From Escherichia coli (GTDB lineage: Bacteria > Pseudomonadota > Gammaproteobacteria > Enterobacterales > Enterobacteriaceae): 5,153 nucleotides of DNA. This document shows positions 1 through 5,153 of the stretch, piece by piece (within the stretch, counting starts at the first letter, position 1; the number at the start of each line of letters is the position of its first letter). Both the position numbers and the translations under genes were made by a program. The notes under the pieces are model-generated. The model worked only from the letters and a program-made list of their open reading frames with translations, searched no databases and was not told the DNA's origin. The stretch is taken from NCBI RefSeq assembly GCF_013315695.1, contig NZ_CP054358.1, one strand, 5' to 3'.

Positions 1-53
1 CATCCAACAAGGAGGTTTATAGCGAATATTCCCACAAAAAATCTTTTCCTCAT
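1..53 (-). CDS. kil: Colicin release (lysis) lipoprotein Kil, 5-prime portion: start codon at 53..51, 17 codons plus 2 nt before the window edge; continues at 5153..5069
   Basis: Reverse complement of 1..53 translates to MRKRFFVGIFAINLLVG followed by TG, which with the complement of base 5153 completes a Cys codon, giving a lipobox L-V-G-C. This N-terminus matches the ColE1 Kil protein as I remember it. A Shine-Dalgarno AAGGA (complement of 61..65) sits 7 nt upstream of the ATG. The gene lies downstream of cea and imm on the cea strand, as in pore-forming colicin operons. Confidence 0.85.
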   Translation of the reverse strand, partial: MRKRFFVGIFAINLLVG

Positions 54-100
54 AACTCGATCCTTATAAAATGAAAAGAATATATAACGAGGTTTAATTT

Positions 101-442
101 ATGAGTTTAAGATACTACATAAAAAATATTTTGTTTGGCCTATACTGCGCACTTATATATATATACCTTATAACAAAAAACAACGAAGGGTATTATTTCC
201 TAGCGTCAGATAAGATGCTATACGCAATAGTGATAAGCACTATTCTATGCCCATATTCAAAATATGCTATTGAACACATATTTTTTAAGTTCATAAAGAA
301 AGATTTTTTCAGAAAAAGAAAAAACCTAAATAATGCCCCCGTGGCAAAATTAAACCTATTTATGCTATACAATCTACTTTGTTTGGTCCTAGCAATCCCA
401 TTTGGATTGCTAGGACTGTTTATATCAATAAAGAATAATTAA
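101..442 (+). CDS. imm: Colicin E1-type immunity protein (inner-membrane protein, 113 aa)
   Basis: The 113-aa product [34 protein letters not shown]... is very hydrophobic with about three predicted transmembrane segments, and matches the ColE1 immunity protein as remembered. It is antisense to and convergent with cea; the stop codons overlap (cea ends at 439, imm at 442). GAGG at 90..93 lies 7 nt before the ATG. The gene is markedly AT-rich compared with its neighbours. Confidence 0.93.
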
Positions 443-2004
443 ATACCCAACACCTCATTTATAGTATTAAGTTTATTCTTATCAATAAAGGCACATAGAA
501 TGCCTGTAACAATAGCAATCCCCCAGATACCTAATGTAGTTCCAGCAAGCACACTAAAAAGTAAAACAACAACATAACTAACTCCAGCATCTACAGCTTT
601 CTTCTCTAATGTAAGAAATAGCGGCTTCCAGTCACCTGTATCCTTAATTTTTAGGATATCAGATACCACATCATATCCAAAAGAAACATGTCCCGTAATC
701 TTCAAGTACTTGGCAAACTGATCTAAATGCTTAGCCCAGTCTTCATACTTAACCGCCTCCAGTGCATTGAAAATTGCATCACGGTCTGCTTTGCTGAATT
801 TCTTATTTAATACATCCTTGTATTTCTCAAAAGCAGCTAGAGCTTCATTCACATTGCTGATTTTCTTACCTTTAGATTTATCAGCAAGTTCCTGTGCCAT
901 TTTTGAATATTTTTCACCATATTTTTCAGATAGCGTTTGATAAAAGCTAACTGTTGCATCCACAGCATCCTTAATCTGCGAGTTCAGGAGATTAGTCTGT
1001 GCTGTTTTCAAATTATCTTCAGCATCATGAATACGTGAAACTGCTGTACTTCGCTTATTATTAGCCTGAGAAATAGCCTCTTGGATTCCATTTATCTCAG
1101 AGCTAATCTGGTTAAGACGCGTTTCTGATGCTGTTACCTGCTTTTGTTTTTCCTCCATCTCATCACCAGCTCTCGCCCGTAGTCTGGTGGCCTCAAAAAA
1201 AGGACGACTCTGAAGCGGATCATTCGCCCTAGGAGATAAAAGTTTAACCCTTTCATCCAGTTCTTTATATTTAGCAGATGCCTGATCCAACTCATTTCGT
1301 TTTCCGGACAGCGTATTCGTTTCTGCATCACGGGCATGAATACTGGAGCTTAAACGGGTATTGAGCGTATTAATCTCTTCATCCACTTTCGCCAGCTCAG
1401 ATTGTGCAGCAGCAAGATTTTTTTGTGCCACCTCCACAGCCCGGGCCTCTTCACTCAATGCTGCCAGGCGTTTCTCTTCATCCTCAGCCAGTTTCAATTG
1501 GCGTTCTGTTTCAGCCTGCTCCTTCTCTATCTCTTTACGTCGTTGTTCTGCTTCCTGAAAAGCCTTTTCCGCAGCTTCCGCTTCTTTACGGGCTTTTTCT
1601 TCTGCTTTTGCAAGGCGCAACCGCTCTGCTTCTGCCTGCATCGCTGCATTATTGGCATGAGCCAGGTCAATAACCTCCGGATGAGTGGAATTATGGCGAA
1701 GCGCCTCATTCACAATATCCTTCAGATGTTGAGTCAGCGCATCCCGGTTTGCTTTCGCTTTAGCCTGTGCTTCTGCGGCAGCTTTTGCTCGGGCAGCCTG
1801 TTCTGCCTGCGTTTTCTTCAATTGAGCAGTAGACCATTTAGCTGTGGCATGAATGGCTGCAGAACTTTCACTTTTGCTACCTCCAGTTCCACCACCACCG
1901 CCAGAGCCACTCCCGTCTGGATTACCATTCAAAAGAGTAATGATTACCTGCCCCTTATCATCATAAGGAACACCATCTTTATAGTACGCTACAGCTGTTT
2001 CCAT
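439..2004 (-). CDS. cea: Pore-forming colicin, colicin E1 type (521 aa): glycine-rich N-terminal translocation region, central coiled-coil receptor-binding region, C-terminal channel-forming domain
   Basis: Product begins [27 protein letters not shown]...[18 protein letters not shown] and ends ...[47 protein letters not shown] (hydrophobic hairpin of the channel domain). It is collinear with colicin E1 (522 aa) from memory, with scattered substitutions. AGAGGA precedes the ATG. The promoter with LexA boxes is immediately upstream. Confidence 0.96.
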
Positions 2005-2051
2005 TATAAAATCCTCTTTGACATTAAAAACAAATAGTTAAAAGCAATATA

Positions 2052-2082
2052 CTGTATATATAATCACTGGTTTTATATACAG
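2052..2082 (-). promoter_or_regulatory. Twin overlapping LexA (SOS) boxes of the colicin operon
   Basis: Read on the - strand: CTGTATATAAAACCAG (complement of 2067..2082) and GTGATTATATATACAG (complement of 2052..2067). Both are close to the CTGT-N8-ACAG consensus. They lie between the -10 hexamer and the cea start, as in ColE1. Confidence 0.8.
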
Positions 2083-2086
2083 TTTA

Positions 2087-2115
2087 AAATTACGCCGCTG
2101 CATTTTCCCTGTCAA
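2087..2115 (-). promoter_or_regulatory. sigma70 promoter of the cea-kil operon (-35 TTGACA at 2115..2110, 17-bp spacer, -10 TAATTT at 2092..2087)
   Basis: Reverse complement of 2086..2116 reads TTGACAGGGAAAATGCAGCGGCGTAATTTT. This is a perfect -35 with a 17-bp spacer, and the predicted start site falls inside the LexA boxes. Confidence 0.75.
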
Positions 2116-2263
2116 CCCTGTGGATTTTCATTTTTGTGAAAACGATCAAAAAAACAGCCACCCACACCACGTGCTATTTCCACCCGATGCCACAAAAACC
2201 AGCACAAACATTACCGTTCTCAGACCTCATTATGTTTTACTGAAACCATGAGATGAGACACCT

Positions 2264-2701
2264 ATGGGACACTGTAACTTTATGGCATGGCACACACTCC
2301 GGGACGCACTGAAAATGACTGGAAGATCGCGTTCACAGTTTTACCGTGATATGCGCTCAGGTCTTGTCAGTTACCGTACCAGCCAGGACGGACGACGGGA
2401 GTTTGAAACCAGTGAACTGATCCGGGCATACGGCGAATTAAAGCGGAATGAGACACCAGAAAGGCACACTCAAGGACACTCAGAAAAACCTCATGATCAG
2501 CAGACAGAACGCATTCTCCGGGAACTGAATGAGCTGAAACAATGCCTGACGCTGATGCTTGAGGATAAACAAGCCCAGGATACGGAGCGCCGGCGCCAGG
2601 AAGCAGAACGGAAACAGCTACAGAATGAGATAGCCCAGCTCAGGCAGGCTCTGGAGCAGGAAAAGAAACGGGGATTCTGGTCCAGGCTGTTCGGTCACTG
2701 A
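2264..2701 (+). CDS. Hypothetical DNA-binding protein (145 aa): N-terminal AlpA/Xis-like helix-turn-helix followed by a charged coiled-coil segment; function unknown
   Basis: Intact 145-aa ORF in otherwise uncrowded DNA. Residues around 9-55 (WHTLRDALKMTGRSRSQFYRDMRSGLVSYRTSQDGRREFETSELIRAY) fit the excisionase/AlpA-type HTH pattern (L..a...tG.SRS..Yr....G......gg.r.f...e). The C-terminal part (ERRRQEAERKQLQNEIAQLRQALEQEKKR) is a heptad-like coiled coil. The ribosome-binding site is weak (GAGA upstream of the ATG at 2264) and the true start could be an internal Met, so the start is uncertain. A relationship to the entry-exclusion region reported for ColE1 is possible but I cannot confirm it from memory. 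Confidence 0.6.
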   Translation: MGHCNFMAWHTLRDALKMTGRSRSQFYRDMRSGLVSYRTSQDGRREFETSELIRAYGELKRNETPERHTQGHSEKPHDQQTERILRELNELKQCLTLMLEDKQAQDTERRRQEAERKQLQNEIAQLRQALEQEKKRGFWSRLFGH

Positions 2702-2781
2702 ACGCGCTCAGAAACTGATGATAAGATAATCTTCGGATAATAACTCACCGAGAATAAATACTTTAAGGTAGGGAGACACTC

Positions 2782-3201
2782 ATGAGACGTACCGGAAACA
2801 AACTTTGTCTTATCGCCATGATAACAGCAACAGTAGCTCTCACAGCCTGTACCCCAAAGGGCAGCGTGGAACAACATACCCGGCATTACGTATATGCTTC
2901 TGATGACGGTTTTGATCCCAACTTTTCCACCCAAAAAGCCGACACAACACGAATGATGGTGCCTTTTTTTCGGCAGTTCTGGGATATGGGAGCTAAAGAT
3001 AAAGCGACAGGAAAATCACGGAGTGATGTGCAACAACGCATTCAACAGTTTCACAGCCAGGAATTTTTAAACTCACTCCGGGGCACAACTCAATTTGCGG
3101 GTACTGATTACCGCAGCAAAGACCTTACCCCGAAAAAATCCAGGCTGCTGGCTGACACGATTTCTGCGGTTTATCTCGATGGCTACGAGGGCAGACAGTA
3201 A
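2782..3201 (+). CDS. Predicted lipoprotein (139 aa; signal peptide with lipobox L-T-A-C, mature protein about 116 aa, Thr at +2), function unknown; candidate surface/entry-exclusion-type protein
   Basis: Strong Shine-Dalgarno AGGGAG (2770..2775) 6 nt before the ATG. The N-terminus MRRTGNKLCLIAMITATVALTAC has a positively charged n-region, a hydrophobic core and a lipobox Cys. The mature part is hydrophilic with no catalytic motif I can recognise. The stop codon (3199..3201) lies 5 bp from the XerD arm of cer. Confidence 0.75.
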   Translation: MRRTGNKLCLIAMITATVALTACTPKGSVEQHTRHYVYASDDGFDPNFSTQKADTTRMMVPFFRQFWDMGAKDKATGKSRSDVQQRIQQFHSQEFLNSLRGTTQFAGTDYRSKDLTPKKSRLLADTISAVYLDGYEGRQ

Positions 3202-3205
3202 GTGG

Positions 3206-3235
3206 ATTTACCATAATCCCTTAATTGTACGCACC
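3206..3235 (-). other. cer: cer-type Xer site-specific recombination core (XerC arm, 8-bp central region, XerD arm)
   Basis: Reverse complement of 3206..3235 is GGTGCGTACAATTAAGGGATTATGGTAAAT, matching the ColE1 cer crossover core from memory (XerC site GGTGCGTACAA, central TTAAGGGA, XerD site TTATGGTAAAT). Confidence 0.85.
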
Positions 3236-3335
3236 ACTGAAACGCGCTGAACGCGATTCTGACGCAGACACCGCAAAAAGAGATGTTTTACCCCGGAAAA
3301 ACAGGAAGGATGCGTCAGGATCGTTTTCAGCTCTC

Positions 3336-3349
3336 TGCATAGCTATGCA
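3336..3349. promoter_or_regulatory. Candidate ArgR box within the cer accessory sequences
   Basis: Perfect 14-bp palindrome TGCATAGCTATGCA at the distance from the Xer core where the cer ARG box lies. Assignment is by position and symmetry only. Confidence 0.5.
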
Positions 3350-3425
3350 TGAAAGCGAATGGTGATCACTTTGGGAGCTTACGGTGTTCATACCGTCAGT
3401 TTTCGACAGTTTTCTCTCCGGGAAG

Positions 3426-3773
3426 CTAATCTGCCATAAGCCTGGATAACAGGGCACGGTGATACTCCGTAATAGCGATCAGCACCTCCGCATACTCCCT
3501 GTCCCCGACACGCTTGCCGTCGATAAAGAGTTTTTTCTGTAACGCCCCCAGTCTCATAACTTCTTTCAGTACCCGATCATCAGTCAGTGAGTTAACTTTC
3601 TTACCGAGAGCTGCCGCCCGTAAAAAACCGGAAACGGTCTTGCCGCATTCAGCAGCCCTTTTTCTGATTTCCTGGTCTTCTTCTGCCGTCAGACGAACAG
3701 GGCGACTGATAGCCCGCCTGCGCGTATTACTTCCACTTCGTTTTGTCATAAAACATGGCTCCGTATCTGACAT
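3426..3773 (-). CDS. mbeC: Mobilisation (relaxosome accessory) protein of the MobC/MbeC family, ribbon-helix-helix type; alternative start at 3749 gives 107 aa
   Basis: Product ...RRRAISRPVRLTAEEDQEIRKRAAECGKTVSGFLRAAALGKKVNS...LGALQKKLFIDGK... has the MobC-family signature (R.VRLT.EE...I...A...G.SVS.F.R..ALG). GGAG (complement of 3759..3762) sits 9 nt upstream of the internal ATG at 3749, so that may be the true start. The oriT-like region is immediately upstream. No relaxase gene follows. Confidence 0.85.
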   Translation of the reverse strand: MSDTEPCFMTKRSGSNTRRRAISRPVRLTAEEDQEIRKRAAECGKTVSGFLRAAALGKKVNSLTDDRVLKEVMRLGALQKKLFIDGKRVGDREYAEVLIAITEYHRALLSRLMAD

Positions 3774-3900
3774 GGGTGTCGGGGCAAAGCCCTGACCAGG
3801 GTAATTGTAATAGCGTGCATGTATGCGCGGTATAACAATTACACATCCTGTCCTGTCAGCAAGTTCGAATTACCGACAAAGGCACGGCAGTTTTTTGGCA
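3774..3900. other. oriT/bom-like region (origin of transfer) upstream of mbeC, with inverted repeat 3801..3812 / 3831..3842
   Basis: GGGTGTCGGGGCAAAGCCCTGACCAGG (3776..3802) resembles the start of the pBR322/pMB1 bom region (GGGTGTCGGGGCGCAGCCATGACCCAG) as remembered. It is followed by the inverted repeat GTAATTGTAATA ... TATAACAATTAC, a typical oriT hairpin. The nick position is not determined. Confidence 0.5.
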
Positions 3901-4032
3901 GTGACAGTATTGTCAGGCAGAAATACCCGTCAAAGCGTCAGACGGCAGAATACCGGCGGTAAAACAGTCGAAAAGTGGTACGCGATATAATCACACAACG
4001 CAGATGACAGACAGAACGGAGAAAACGAAAAG

Positions 4033-4227
4033 ATGAACAAGCAGCAGCAAGCCGTACTCAACATGGCAGGATTCATAAAAAGCCAAAGCCTGACGCTGCT
4101 CGAAAAGCTGGACGCACTCGATGCTGACGAACAGGCTACCATGTGTGAGAAGCTGCACGAACTCGCAGAAGAACTCCAGAACAGCATCCAGACACGCTTT
4201 GAAGTAGAAAATAGCACAGAGAGATAA
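4033..4227 (+). CDS. rom: Rom/Rop (RNA one modulator), 64 aa, four-helix-bundle regulator of the RNA I-RNA II kissing complex
   Basis: MNKQQQAVLNMAGFIKSQSLTLLEKLDALDADEQATMCEKLHELAEELQNSIQTRF... aligns along its length with pBR322 Rop (MTKQEKTALNMARFIRSQTLTLLEKLNELDADEQADICESLHDHADELYRSC...). GGAG precedes the start; the gene is adjacent to oriV and oriented towards it. Confidence 0.9.
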   Translation: MNKQQQAVLNMAGFIKSQSLTLLEKLDALDADEQATMCEKLHELAEELQNSIQTRFEVENSTER

Positions 4228-4868
4228 CGCTCAGGACAGGATACCGAACGGCACAACAGAGCGTAAGGAGAAAATGTCACATAAGGCGCTCTTCCGCTTC
4301 CTCGCTCACTGACTCGCTACGCTCGGACGTTCGACTGCGGCGAGCGGTGTCAGCTCACTCAAAAGCGGTAATACGGTTATCCACAGAATCAGGGGATAAA
4401 GCCGGAAAGAACATGTGAGCAAAAAGCAAAGCACCGGAAGAAGCCAGCGACGCAGGCGTTTTTCCATAGGCTCCGCCCCCCTGACGAGCATCACAAAAAT
4501 CGACGCTCAAGCCAGAGGTGGCGAAACCCGACAGGACTATAAAGATACCAGGCGTTTCCCCCTGGAAGCTCCCTCGTGCGCTCTCCTGTTCCGACCCTGC
4601 CGCTTACCGGATACCTGTCCGCCTTTCTCCCTTCGGGAAGCGTGGCGCTTTCTCATAGCTCACGCTGTTGGTATCTCGGCTCGGTGTAGGTCGTTCGCTC
4701 CAAGCTGGGCTGTGTGCACGAACCCCCCGTTCAGCCCGACCGCTGCGCCTTATCCGGTAACTATCGTCTTGAGTCCAACCCGGTAAGACACGACTTAGCG
4801 CCACTGGCAGCAGCCGTTGGTAACTTGGTTAGCAGAGCGATGATGGCGCAAATGGTGCAACAGAGTTC

Positions 4869-4898
4869 TTGAAGTAGTGGCCCGACTACGGCTACACT
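4869..4898 (+). promoter_or_regulatory. RNA I promoter (-35 TTGAAG, 18-bp spacer, -10 TACACT)
   Basis: Hexamers positioned as in pMB1; the RNA I start at about 4905 lies 7 nt downstream of the -10. Confidence 0.6.
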
Positions 4899-4904
4899 GG
4901 AAGG

Positions 4905-5012
4905 ACAGTATTTGGTATCTGCGCTCTGCTGAAGCCAGTTACCTCGGTTAAGCAGTTCCCCAACTGACTTAACCTTCGATCAAACCGCCTCCCCAGGCGG
5001 TTTTTTCGTTTA
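4905..5012 (+). ncRNA. RNA I (antisense copy-number control RNA, about 108 nt)
   Basis: Starts ACAGTATTTGGTATCTGCGCTCTGCTGAAGCCAGTTACC, identical to the 5-prime end and stem-loop 1 of pMB1 RNA I. Ends in a stem (CCGCC 4985..4989 / GGCGG 4996..5000) followed by TTTTTT. -35 TTGAAG (4869..4874) and -10 TACACT (4893..4898) are upstream. Confidence 0.85.
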
Positions 5013-5020
5013 CAGGCAGC

Positions 5021-5049
5021 AGATTACGCGCAGAAAAAAAGGATCTCAA
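5021..5049 (-). promoter_or_regulatory. RNA II promoter (-35 TTGAGA at 5049..5044, 17-bp spacer, -10 TAATCT at 5026..5021)
   Basis: The complement of GGATCTCAAG...AGATTACGCG gives TTGAGA and TAATCT, the same elements as the pBR322 RNA II promoter. Confidence 0.7.
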
Positions 5050-5060
5050 GAAGATCCTTT
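5034..5060 (-). terminator. Hairpin plus short U-run just downstream of the kil stop; candidate terminator of the cea-kil transcript, overlapping the RNA II -35 region
   Basis: Arms AAAGGATCT (5038..5046) and AGATCCTTT (5052..5060) with a 5-nt loop. On the - strand the hairpin is followed by TTTT (complement of 5034..5037). The kil stop is at 5071..5069. Confidence 0.4.
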
Positions 5061-5068
5061 GATCTTTT

Positions 5069-5153
5069 CTACTGAACAGAGATCCCCGTCAATTTAGAAG
5101 AAGATGATGGAGCCACAGTCCCTCCCTGAACATCACGTATATAGTTAGCCTGA
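5069..5153 (-). CDS. kil: Colicin release (lysis) lipoprotein Kil, 3-prime portion (residues about 18-45 plus stop at 5071..5069); joins 1..53 if the molecule is circular
   Basis: Reverse complement of 5153..5069, in the frame set by bases 2..1, reads (C)QANYIRDVQGGTVAPSSSSKLTGISVQ then TAG. This is a near-exact continuation of the ColE1-type lysis protein, giving a 45-aa lipoprotein overall. Neither the ORF track nor a linear gene finder can see it because it is split by the window boundary. Confidence 0.8.
   Translation of the reverse strand, partial: QANYIRDVQGGTVAPSSSSKLTGISVQ

Follow-up and report, generated by a model that had tools for sequence, protein, structure and literature searches.

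In the IncI1 plasmid R64, the minimal oriT and the NikA site are located 5′ of the nick, and in the IncP plasmid RP4 the oriT region carries the divergent traJ and traK promoters, which are repressed by relaxosome proteins. The geometry described for R64 includes a long inverted repeat that ends 8 nt from the nick (PMC3817090, PMC4743918), and the R64-type oriT of pEC156 functions with R64drd11 (PMC4743918). R64-type modules are also found on small ColE1-like plasmids of the NTP16/pCERC7 group (MOB_RNA type 5), which are described in PMC9282650 and PMC6807383, both citing Moran & Hall 2017. A minority of the members carry colicin E1 (PMC6807383), and the small nikA-bearing members are reported to be mobilisable in what PMC9282650 cites from Moran & Hall 2017.

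Here, we analysed a 182-bp non-coding stretch (3851-4032) of one such plasmid, which a first-pass annotation had placed, correctly, between oriT and rom, and whose GGCAG copies and near-palindrome it had put forward as a possible binding site for relaxosome or accessory proteins. Our comparison indicates that this set of motifs is not a protein-binding array and that the stretch is an ordinary intergenic spacer of a known plasmid family. The DNA analysed (the window, 5,153 bp) is a complete circular ColE1-like plasmid of the NTP16/pCERC7 group, to which pMUT1, pOSAK1, pCRP3 and pU302S also belong; pSCU-125-4 from E. coli (NZ_CP051704.1) has the same length and is 99.8% identical over window positions 3700-4300. 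The window carries a colicin E1-family immunity gene (101-442, plus strand), the colicin gene (439-2004, minus strand) and a colicin lysis gene that spans the window ends (about 5069-5153 joined to 1-53, minus strand; placed from the 71-nt offset to pSCU-125-4). These are followed by a gene for a 145-aa protein (2264-2701, plus strand; “hypothetical protein” in the plasmid’s record), the Exc2 lipoprotein gene (2782-3201, plus strand), the XerC/XerD core of cer (3206-3235, minus strand), a nikA-like relaxosome accessory gene of 107 codons (3426-3749, minus strand; annotated “mobA” or “nikA”, as in pSCU-125-4), the annotated rom/rop gene (4033-4227, plus strand; Pfam Rop PF01815, E=4.5e-31) and, by Rfam, RNAI of the ColE1-type origin (4907-5009). 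RNAI was the sole match of an Rfam scan over the whole window, in which the spacer matched no family. The ColE1 counterpart of the 2264-2701 open reading frame is annotated as “entry exclusion protein 1”; the frame itself has no Pfam family above threshold.

BLAST comparison with ColE1 gave 90-95% identity over 1-3257 and 4256-5153 and no match over 3258-4255; the nikA-oriT-spacer-rom block of the present plasmid therefore replaces the bom-rom-mbeABCD block of ColE1. The left ColE1 junction lies about 20 nt past the cer core, a position compatible with the exchange of segments at the multimer-resolution site that has been described in pCERC7-group plasmids. A promoter-like TTCAGC-16-TACAAT (3224-3251, minus strand), scoring 8.5 with the position weight matrix (PWM) introduced below, overlaps the cer core, which we take to be consistent with the P_cer/Rcd promoter arrangement of ColE1 cer.

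The 107-aa protein belongs to the NikA-like family of Pfam (PF21983, E=2.8e-18) and shares 54% identity with IncI NikA, and the adjoining oriT is of the R64/IncI type: its part 5′ of the nick occupies 3774-3850 (plus strand), and 3774-3856 is about 85% identical to the oriT of large IncI-type conjugative plasmids. The first-pass annotation had read the transfer system as ColE1-like and had proposed footprinting with MbeC; that assignment is not supported, and since the module is of the R64/NikA type, MbeC is the wrong protein to footprint. The plasmid has no relaxase gene and is thus dependent on the NikB of a helper. MOB-suite typing in PLSDB nevertheless labels NTP16/pCERC7-group plasmids “relaxase MOBF”, an apparent misclassification to which the NikA-like accessory gene seems to have led.

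Two inverted repeats lie within oriT and outside the spacer: an 8-bp repeat at 3778-3785 and 3789-3796 (GTCGGGGC/GCCCTGAC), and a 20-nt repeat, found by repeat search, whose arms (3801-3820 and 3823-3842) are 85% complementary and whose proximal arm stops 8 nt 5′ of the putative nick. The nick region is MOBP-like, and its core ACATCCTG (3843-3850) is identical in 18 of 18 relatives and aligns with that of IncI plasmids. By analogy with R64 and RP4, from which we take the nick position, we infer that the relaxase cuts between 3850 and 3851, that is, between ACATCCTG and the T that follows it, exactly at the left edge of the spacer. The plus strand from 3851 would then form the 5′ end of the transferred strand and be the first DNA to enter a recipient, and the predicted NikA binding site, like the inverted repeats, would lie to the left of the nick. 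The sequence CCTGTCCTGTCAGC (3847-3860), previously listed among the spacer repeats, is the nick core itself. The bases TCCTGT immediately 3′ of the core (3851-3856, plus strand) are the last that are common to other R64-type oriTs: similarity ends 5-6 nt past the nick in seven independent contexts, including the IncI plasmid. Positions 3857-4032 do not form part of the conserved oriT, as judged from the IncI plasmids and five further R64-type contexts.

Two other plasmids show further arrangements of an R64-type oriT. In pEC881_6 (NZ_CP019023.1), a small ColE1-like plasmid, the oriT lies directly upstream of rom (193-491), with rom in the place held by nikA in R64 and the NTP16 group, a layout that gives a hint of a leftward promoter, located in oriT or past it, being able to express any gene placed there. 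In NZ_CP075714.1 (Col(MG828), 1549 bp), a second, inverted GGGTGTCGGGGCGAAGCCCTGACC element, corresponding to the 8-bp inverted-repeat part of oriT, is located about 150-190 nt after the nick.

Within the spacer, GGCAG occurs at 3886, 3897, 3916 and 3944 (copies 1 to 4) and the T6 run at 3891-3896; the three copies reported earlier around T6 are all in place, and the copy at 3944 had been overlooked. The near-palindrome GACAGTATTGTC (3903-3914) is likewise present as described, self-complementary at 10 of 12 positions. The spacings between successive GGCAG copies (11, 19 and 28 nt) are irregular and show no helical phasing. Four copies of one pre-specified 5-mer would have a probability of about 1e-4; some 5-mer reaches at least four copies in 16% of mononucleotide-shuffled spacers (P=0.16). 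The window contains nineteen 12-mers with at least 10 of 12 self-complementary positions, corresponding to about 0.7 expected per 182 bp. Neither the GGCAG count nor the palindrome is beyond chance. A repeat search detected no repeat family and no inverted repeat inside the spacer; its sole match there was one copy of a two-copy 11-mer, 10/11 identical to the other copy in oriT. The spacer copy (3956-3966) resembles GCGGTAAAACA, part of the predicted NikA-binding arm, and was rejected as a second NikA site because the 11-mer varies among relatives. A scan of the spacer with the IHF consensus found no site at up to one mismatch, and a sigma-54 reading of TGGCAG...TTGTC was rejected by eye, its spacing being 3 nt too long.

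The spacer was found in 382 PLSDB plasmids, all of the NTP16/pCERC7 family, at 82-100% identity, and 18 representatives spanning the haplotypes were aligned for conservation counts and diversity (pi). In 380 PLSDB records NikA has an identity of 95% or more, and the next records fall below 60%. A PLSDB search for deeper relatives of the spacer and NikA returned nothing in the range from about 95% down to 60% protein identity, which makes deeper phylogenetic footprinting impossible in this database. Along the alignment, pi is 0.018 in nikA, 0.027 in oriT, 0.060 in 3861-3912, 0.264 in 3913-3961, 0.075 in 3962-3999 and 0.048 in 4000-4032, followed by 0.068 in rom (0.10 at third positions) and 0.198 in 4228-4283. 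The T6 run and GGCAG copy 2 are kept in 18/18 representatives, as are the TATAAT and GGAG motifs ahead of rom (see below); copy 4 is kept in 16, copy 1 in 12, and copy 3 and the near-palindrome in 4 each. In the other 14 relatives the near-palindrome is replaced by GACAGTGTTGTC (13 plasmids), which is self-complementary at merely 8 of 12 positions, or by TACAGTGTTGTC (1 plasmid). Conservation of the repeats and palindrome in related plasmids had been named beforehand as the decisive comparison, and it is largely absent, T6 and copy 2 being the only invariant ones among the left motifs.

The variation divides the spacer into three blocks. The left block (3857-3912) is family-specific and moderately conserved, and holds copies 1 and 2, T6 and the start of the near-palindrome; 8 of its 53 columns are variable, the same level as at nikA third-codon positions (Fisher p=1.0). 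In so shallow a family this level makes its conservation indistinguishable from neutrality, and the conservation of the block may be neutral. The middle block (3913-3961), which holds copies 3 and 4, is hypervariable and indel-prone, with 37 of 49 columns variable and indels of 11-13 bp; it differs from both flanks (Fisher p about 1e-10), and no other part of the sampled backbone varies as much. In the right block (3962-4032), 12 of 71 columns are variable, compared with 22 of 65 at rom third-codon positions (p=0.03). Two hypervariable intergenic blocks thus flank rom, 3913-3961 and 4228-4283, both with indels. In some plasmids (L007, L017) the left haplotype is joined to a different middle and right haplotype, which suggests recombination within the spacer.

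The same alignment bears on two open reading frames of 47 aa (3819-3962) and 55 aa (3823-3990), both included in the program-made list of frames, that could be taken to encode a small protein. Relatives carry indels of 1, 11, 12 and 13 nt within these frames, so the coding reading is effectively refuted; moreover, both starts fall inside the oriT inverted repeat, neither frame has a Pfam match, and no deposited record annotates either. We regard the chance that a small protein is encoded here as vanishingly small.

These results allow the earlier proposal to be weighed, namely that GGCAG, T6 and the near-palindrome together make up an array bound by relaxosome components (the NikA-like protein, the NikB of the helper or a host bending protein) and so extend oriT 3′ of the nick. 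In favour of such an array are the invariance of T6 and copy 2, the retention of copy 4 in 16 of 18 relatives, the 11-mer at 3956-3966 and the GGCAG copies found 59-79 nt past the nick in the IncI plasmid. However, copy 1 is lost in 6 of the 18 relatives and copy 3 and the palindrome in 14 each, the spacings are irregular, the motif count lies within chance and there is no IHF-like site. In the IncI backbone, GGCAG does no more than make up the two arms of a GGCAGGGC/GCCCTGCC hairpin, and five further R64-type contexts have no GGCAG at distances up to 190 nt from the nick. Relatives also differ in the 11-mer, and the known R64 elements lie on the other side of the nick. A binding array is therefore very unlikely in our view, and the repeats do not bear out the role first suggested for them. 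Nor can GGCAG be counted as a general trait of R64-type oriTs, since it is absent in 5 of 7 independent contexts.

A further possibility is that the spacer is a leading-region element that acts as single-stranded DNA, either as a single-strand initiation or primase site or as a Frpo-like hairpin promoter. Such a role would suit the fairly conserved left block and also the putative place of the plus strand, which, if RP4 and R64 are a guide, would begin the transferred strand from 3851 onward. Yet the spacer folds no better than its shuffles (z = -1.03 for the plus strand and -0.42 for the minus strand), it contains no inverted repeat and has no Rfam match, and homology to the ColE1-type primosome site is found elsewhere, at 4284-4400, inside the region that the plasmid has in common with ColE1. 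IncI helpers, in addition, export their own primase. We consider a single-strand element highly improbable; the preferred reading remains that of an intergenic spacer whose outer parts belong to the neighbouring modules.

Further analysis revealed a leftward sigma-70-like promoter candidate in the spacer (3904-3933, minus strand), which points through the nick, the NikA site and oriT to nikA. It consists of a -35 element TTGACG (3933..3928) and a -10 element that may be either AATACT (3911..3906, spacer 16) or TACTGT (3909..3904, spacer 18); the -10 overlaps the near-palindrome, and GGCAG copy 3 sits in the promoter spacer. Scores were obtained with a crude sigma-70 PWM built from textbook frequencies. 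Its top three matches on the plasmid coincide with the expected positions of the colicin, RNA II and RNA I promoters, which we assume from pBR322 and ColE1, and the matrix can therefore be regarded as calibrated. The highest match of all is in the colicin promoter region (TTGACA-17-TAATTT, minus strand, 2115..2087), and is followed at about 2049-2083 by LexA-box-like palindromes of the CTGTATATA type, presumably reflecting the expected SOS control of the colicin.

The leftward site ranks fourth on the plasmid by PWM, with a score of 9.8-10.2, and a consensus promoter scan returned it as its only match (1 found, 0.6 expected); 15% of shuffled spacers attain its PWM score. The -35 is present in 9 of 18 relatives, a 12-bp deletion removes it in 8 without leaving a good substitute, and the 9 relatives that lack the promoter have an identical or almost identical NikA. 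On these sequence grounds the chances that the site is functional in this plasmid appear about even, and in the family as a whole it would clearly be dispensable. The IncI plasmid has its best leftward candidate, ATGATG-16-TATAAT, in a similar place shortly beyond the nick. A conserved nikA promoter was also sought inside oriT, where the candidates are TG-AATTGT (3840..3835, score 4.9) and TACAAT (3809..3804, score 4.6), both weak. In the IncI-type plasmids L008 and L025, a perfect TATAAT is present on the nikA-sense strand 17-22 nt after the nick and, farther out at 59-86 nt, there is a GGCAGGGC-GCA-GCCCTGCC hairpin; their post-nick sequence is identical though their oriT inverted repeats differ.

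The leftward candidate can be combined with the T6-GGCAG core, which is invariant and lies 41-51 nt past the nick, into a family-specific control element at the leading end. In one version, transcription starting in the spacer and crossing both nick and NikA site would adjust nicking or the dosage of nikA in a hitchhiker plasmid that has no relaxase; in another, the element could be a preferred start site for the Sog primase of the helper on the entering strand. We mention this as a long shot with a slim chance of being correct.

At the other end of the spacer, the TATAAT hexamer (3986-3991, plus strand) is the probable -10 of a rom promoter, with a predicted transcription start near 3998. It begins 47 nt before the rom ATG at 4033, and in ColE1 a TATCAT is found 45 nt before rom; its occurrence at the place of the ColE1 hexamer makes it the probable rom promoter. 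The first-pass annotation had noted a good -10 here with no convincing -35, which our scan bears out: there is no canonical -35, the best pairing being AACAGT with a spacer of 17 and a PWM score of 3.4, and no TG extension. Its suggestion that the rom promoter lies in the spacer is plausible in that TATAAT and the GGAG ribosome-binding site (4018-4021, plus strand) are invariant in 18/18 relatives and TATAAT is placed as in ColE1, and is weakened by the want of an acceptable -35. Judged by its sequence and placement, TATAAT is probably a weak, constitutive rom promoter. Similarity to other rom lineages starts at about 4016. A literature search found no paper giving the rom promoter or the transcription start of pOSAK1.

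The weak -35 leaves some room for the view that the whole spacer is neutral filler, that TATAAT is not the rom promoter, and that rom is transcribed from another or an upstream start, for example from a TTGTCA-type -35 at 3910-3915. Rightward candidates with higher scores (6.6-9.0) do exist, every haplotype having one of its own that is built on TTGTC[ATG] at 3910, and the diversity of 3962-4032 is near the rom coding average. These upstream candidates, however, are conserved in neither position nor sequence, whereas TATAAT and its flanks (GCGCGATATAATCACA) are invariant, neighbouring intergenic blocks being 58-76% variable, and the hexamer matches the ColE1 TATCAT in position. We consider this view unlikely.

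Taken together, the explanation that we favour, and hold to be probable as a whole, is that the 182-bp stretch is a non-coding gap between two divergently oriented modules, a left-pointing one comprising the R64/IncI-type oriT and nikA and a right-pointing one comprising rom and the ColE1-type origin. The first six or so nucleotides would be the 3′ half of the nick core, adjoining the relaxase cut at 3850/3851. The right third (about 3962-4032) would supply the rom signals, that is, TATAAT with its weak -35, a 5′ UTR of about 35 nt and GGAG. The middle would have no conserved function; it is the fastest-evolving, indel-prone part of the sampled backbone and probably a recombination zone between the modules. 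In this haplotype it would hold a good leftward sigma-70 promoter, from which transcription would reach nikA by way of the nick and the NikA site, and the GGCAG copies and near-palindrome would be by-products of base composition and of the -10 of that promoter.

The plasmid family is a known one, and the main value of the analysis is corrective: the transfer module is of the R64/NikA type, the nick falls, by analogy, at the left edge of the spacer, and the repeats do not constitute a binding array. If both promoter assignments are true, they would provide a simple map of nikA and rom expression in relaxase-less “hitchhiker” ColE1 plasmids. Such plasmids include pMUT1 of the probiotic E. coli Nissle, and the map would be useful for engineering rather than conceptually new.

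Set against known systems, the locus recalls RP4 in having candidate promoters next to the nick, with predicted transcription of the accessory gene crossing the nick and the binding site. With ColE1 it shares a rom gene divergent from the gene of an RHH accessory protein, and a -10-like hexamer 45-47 nt before the rom start. The intergenic regions have no detectable DNA similarity, and the accessory protein is MbeC in ColE1 and NikA-like here; the rom/mbeC gap of ColE1 measures 63 bp and has no oriT in it, bom/oriT of ColE1 lying on the other side of rom. The IncI1 plasmids R64 and ColIb-P9 share with it the nick core (ACATCCTG followed by TCC), the long inverted repeat 8 nt off the nick and the 8-bp inverted repeat (PMC3817090, PMC4743918), as well as a nikA gene adjoining oriT and a best leftward promoter candidate beyond the nick. 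In contrast to those plasmids, nikB is missing here, the long inverted repeat measures 20 nt instead of 17 nt, and relatedness 3′ of the nick ends after about 6 nt, the IncI plasmids continuing into leading-region genes and the present plasmid into rom and a ColE1 origin. The closest match is the NTP16/pCERC7 group, which has the same nikA-oriT-spacer-rom-ori backbone, an identical or nearly identical NikA and, in some members as in this plasmid, the colicin E1 operon (PMC6807383). Nothing essential differs from that group, within which the plasmid represents the colicin E1-carrying 5,153-bp subtype with the “A” spacer haplotype, characterised by four GGCAG copies and an intact TTGACG.
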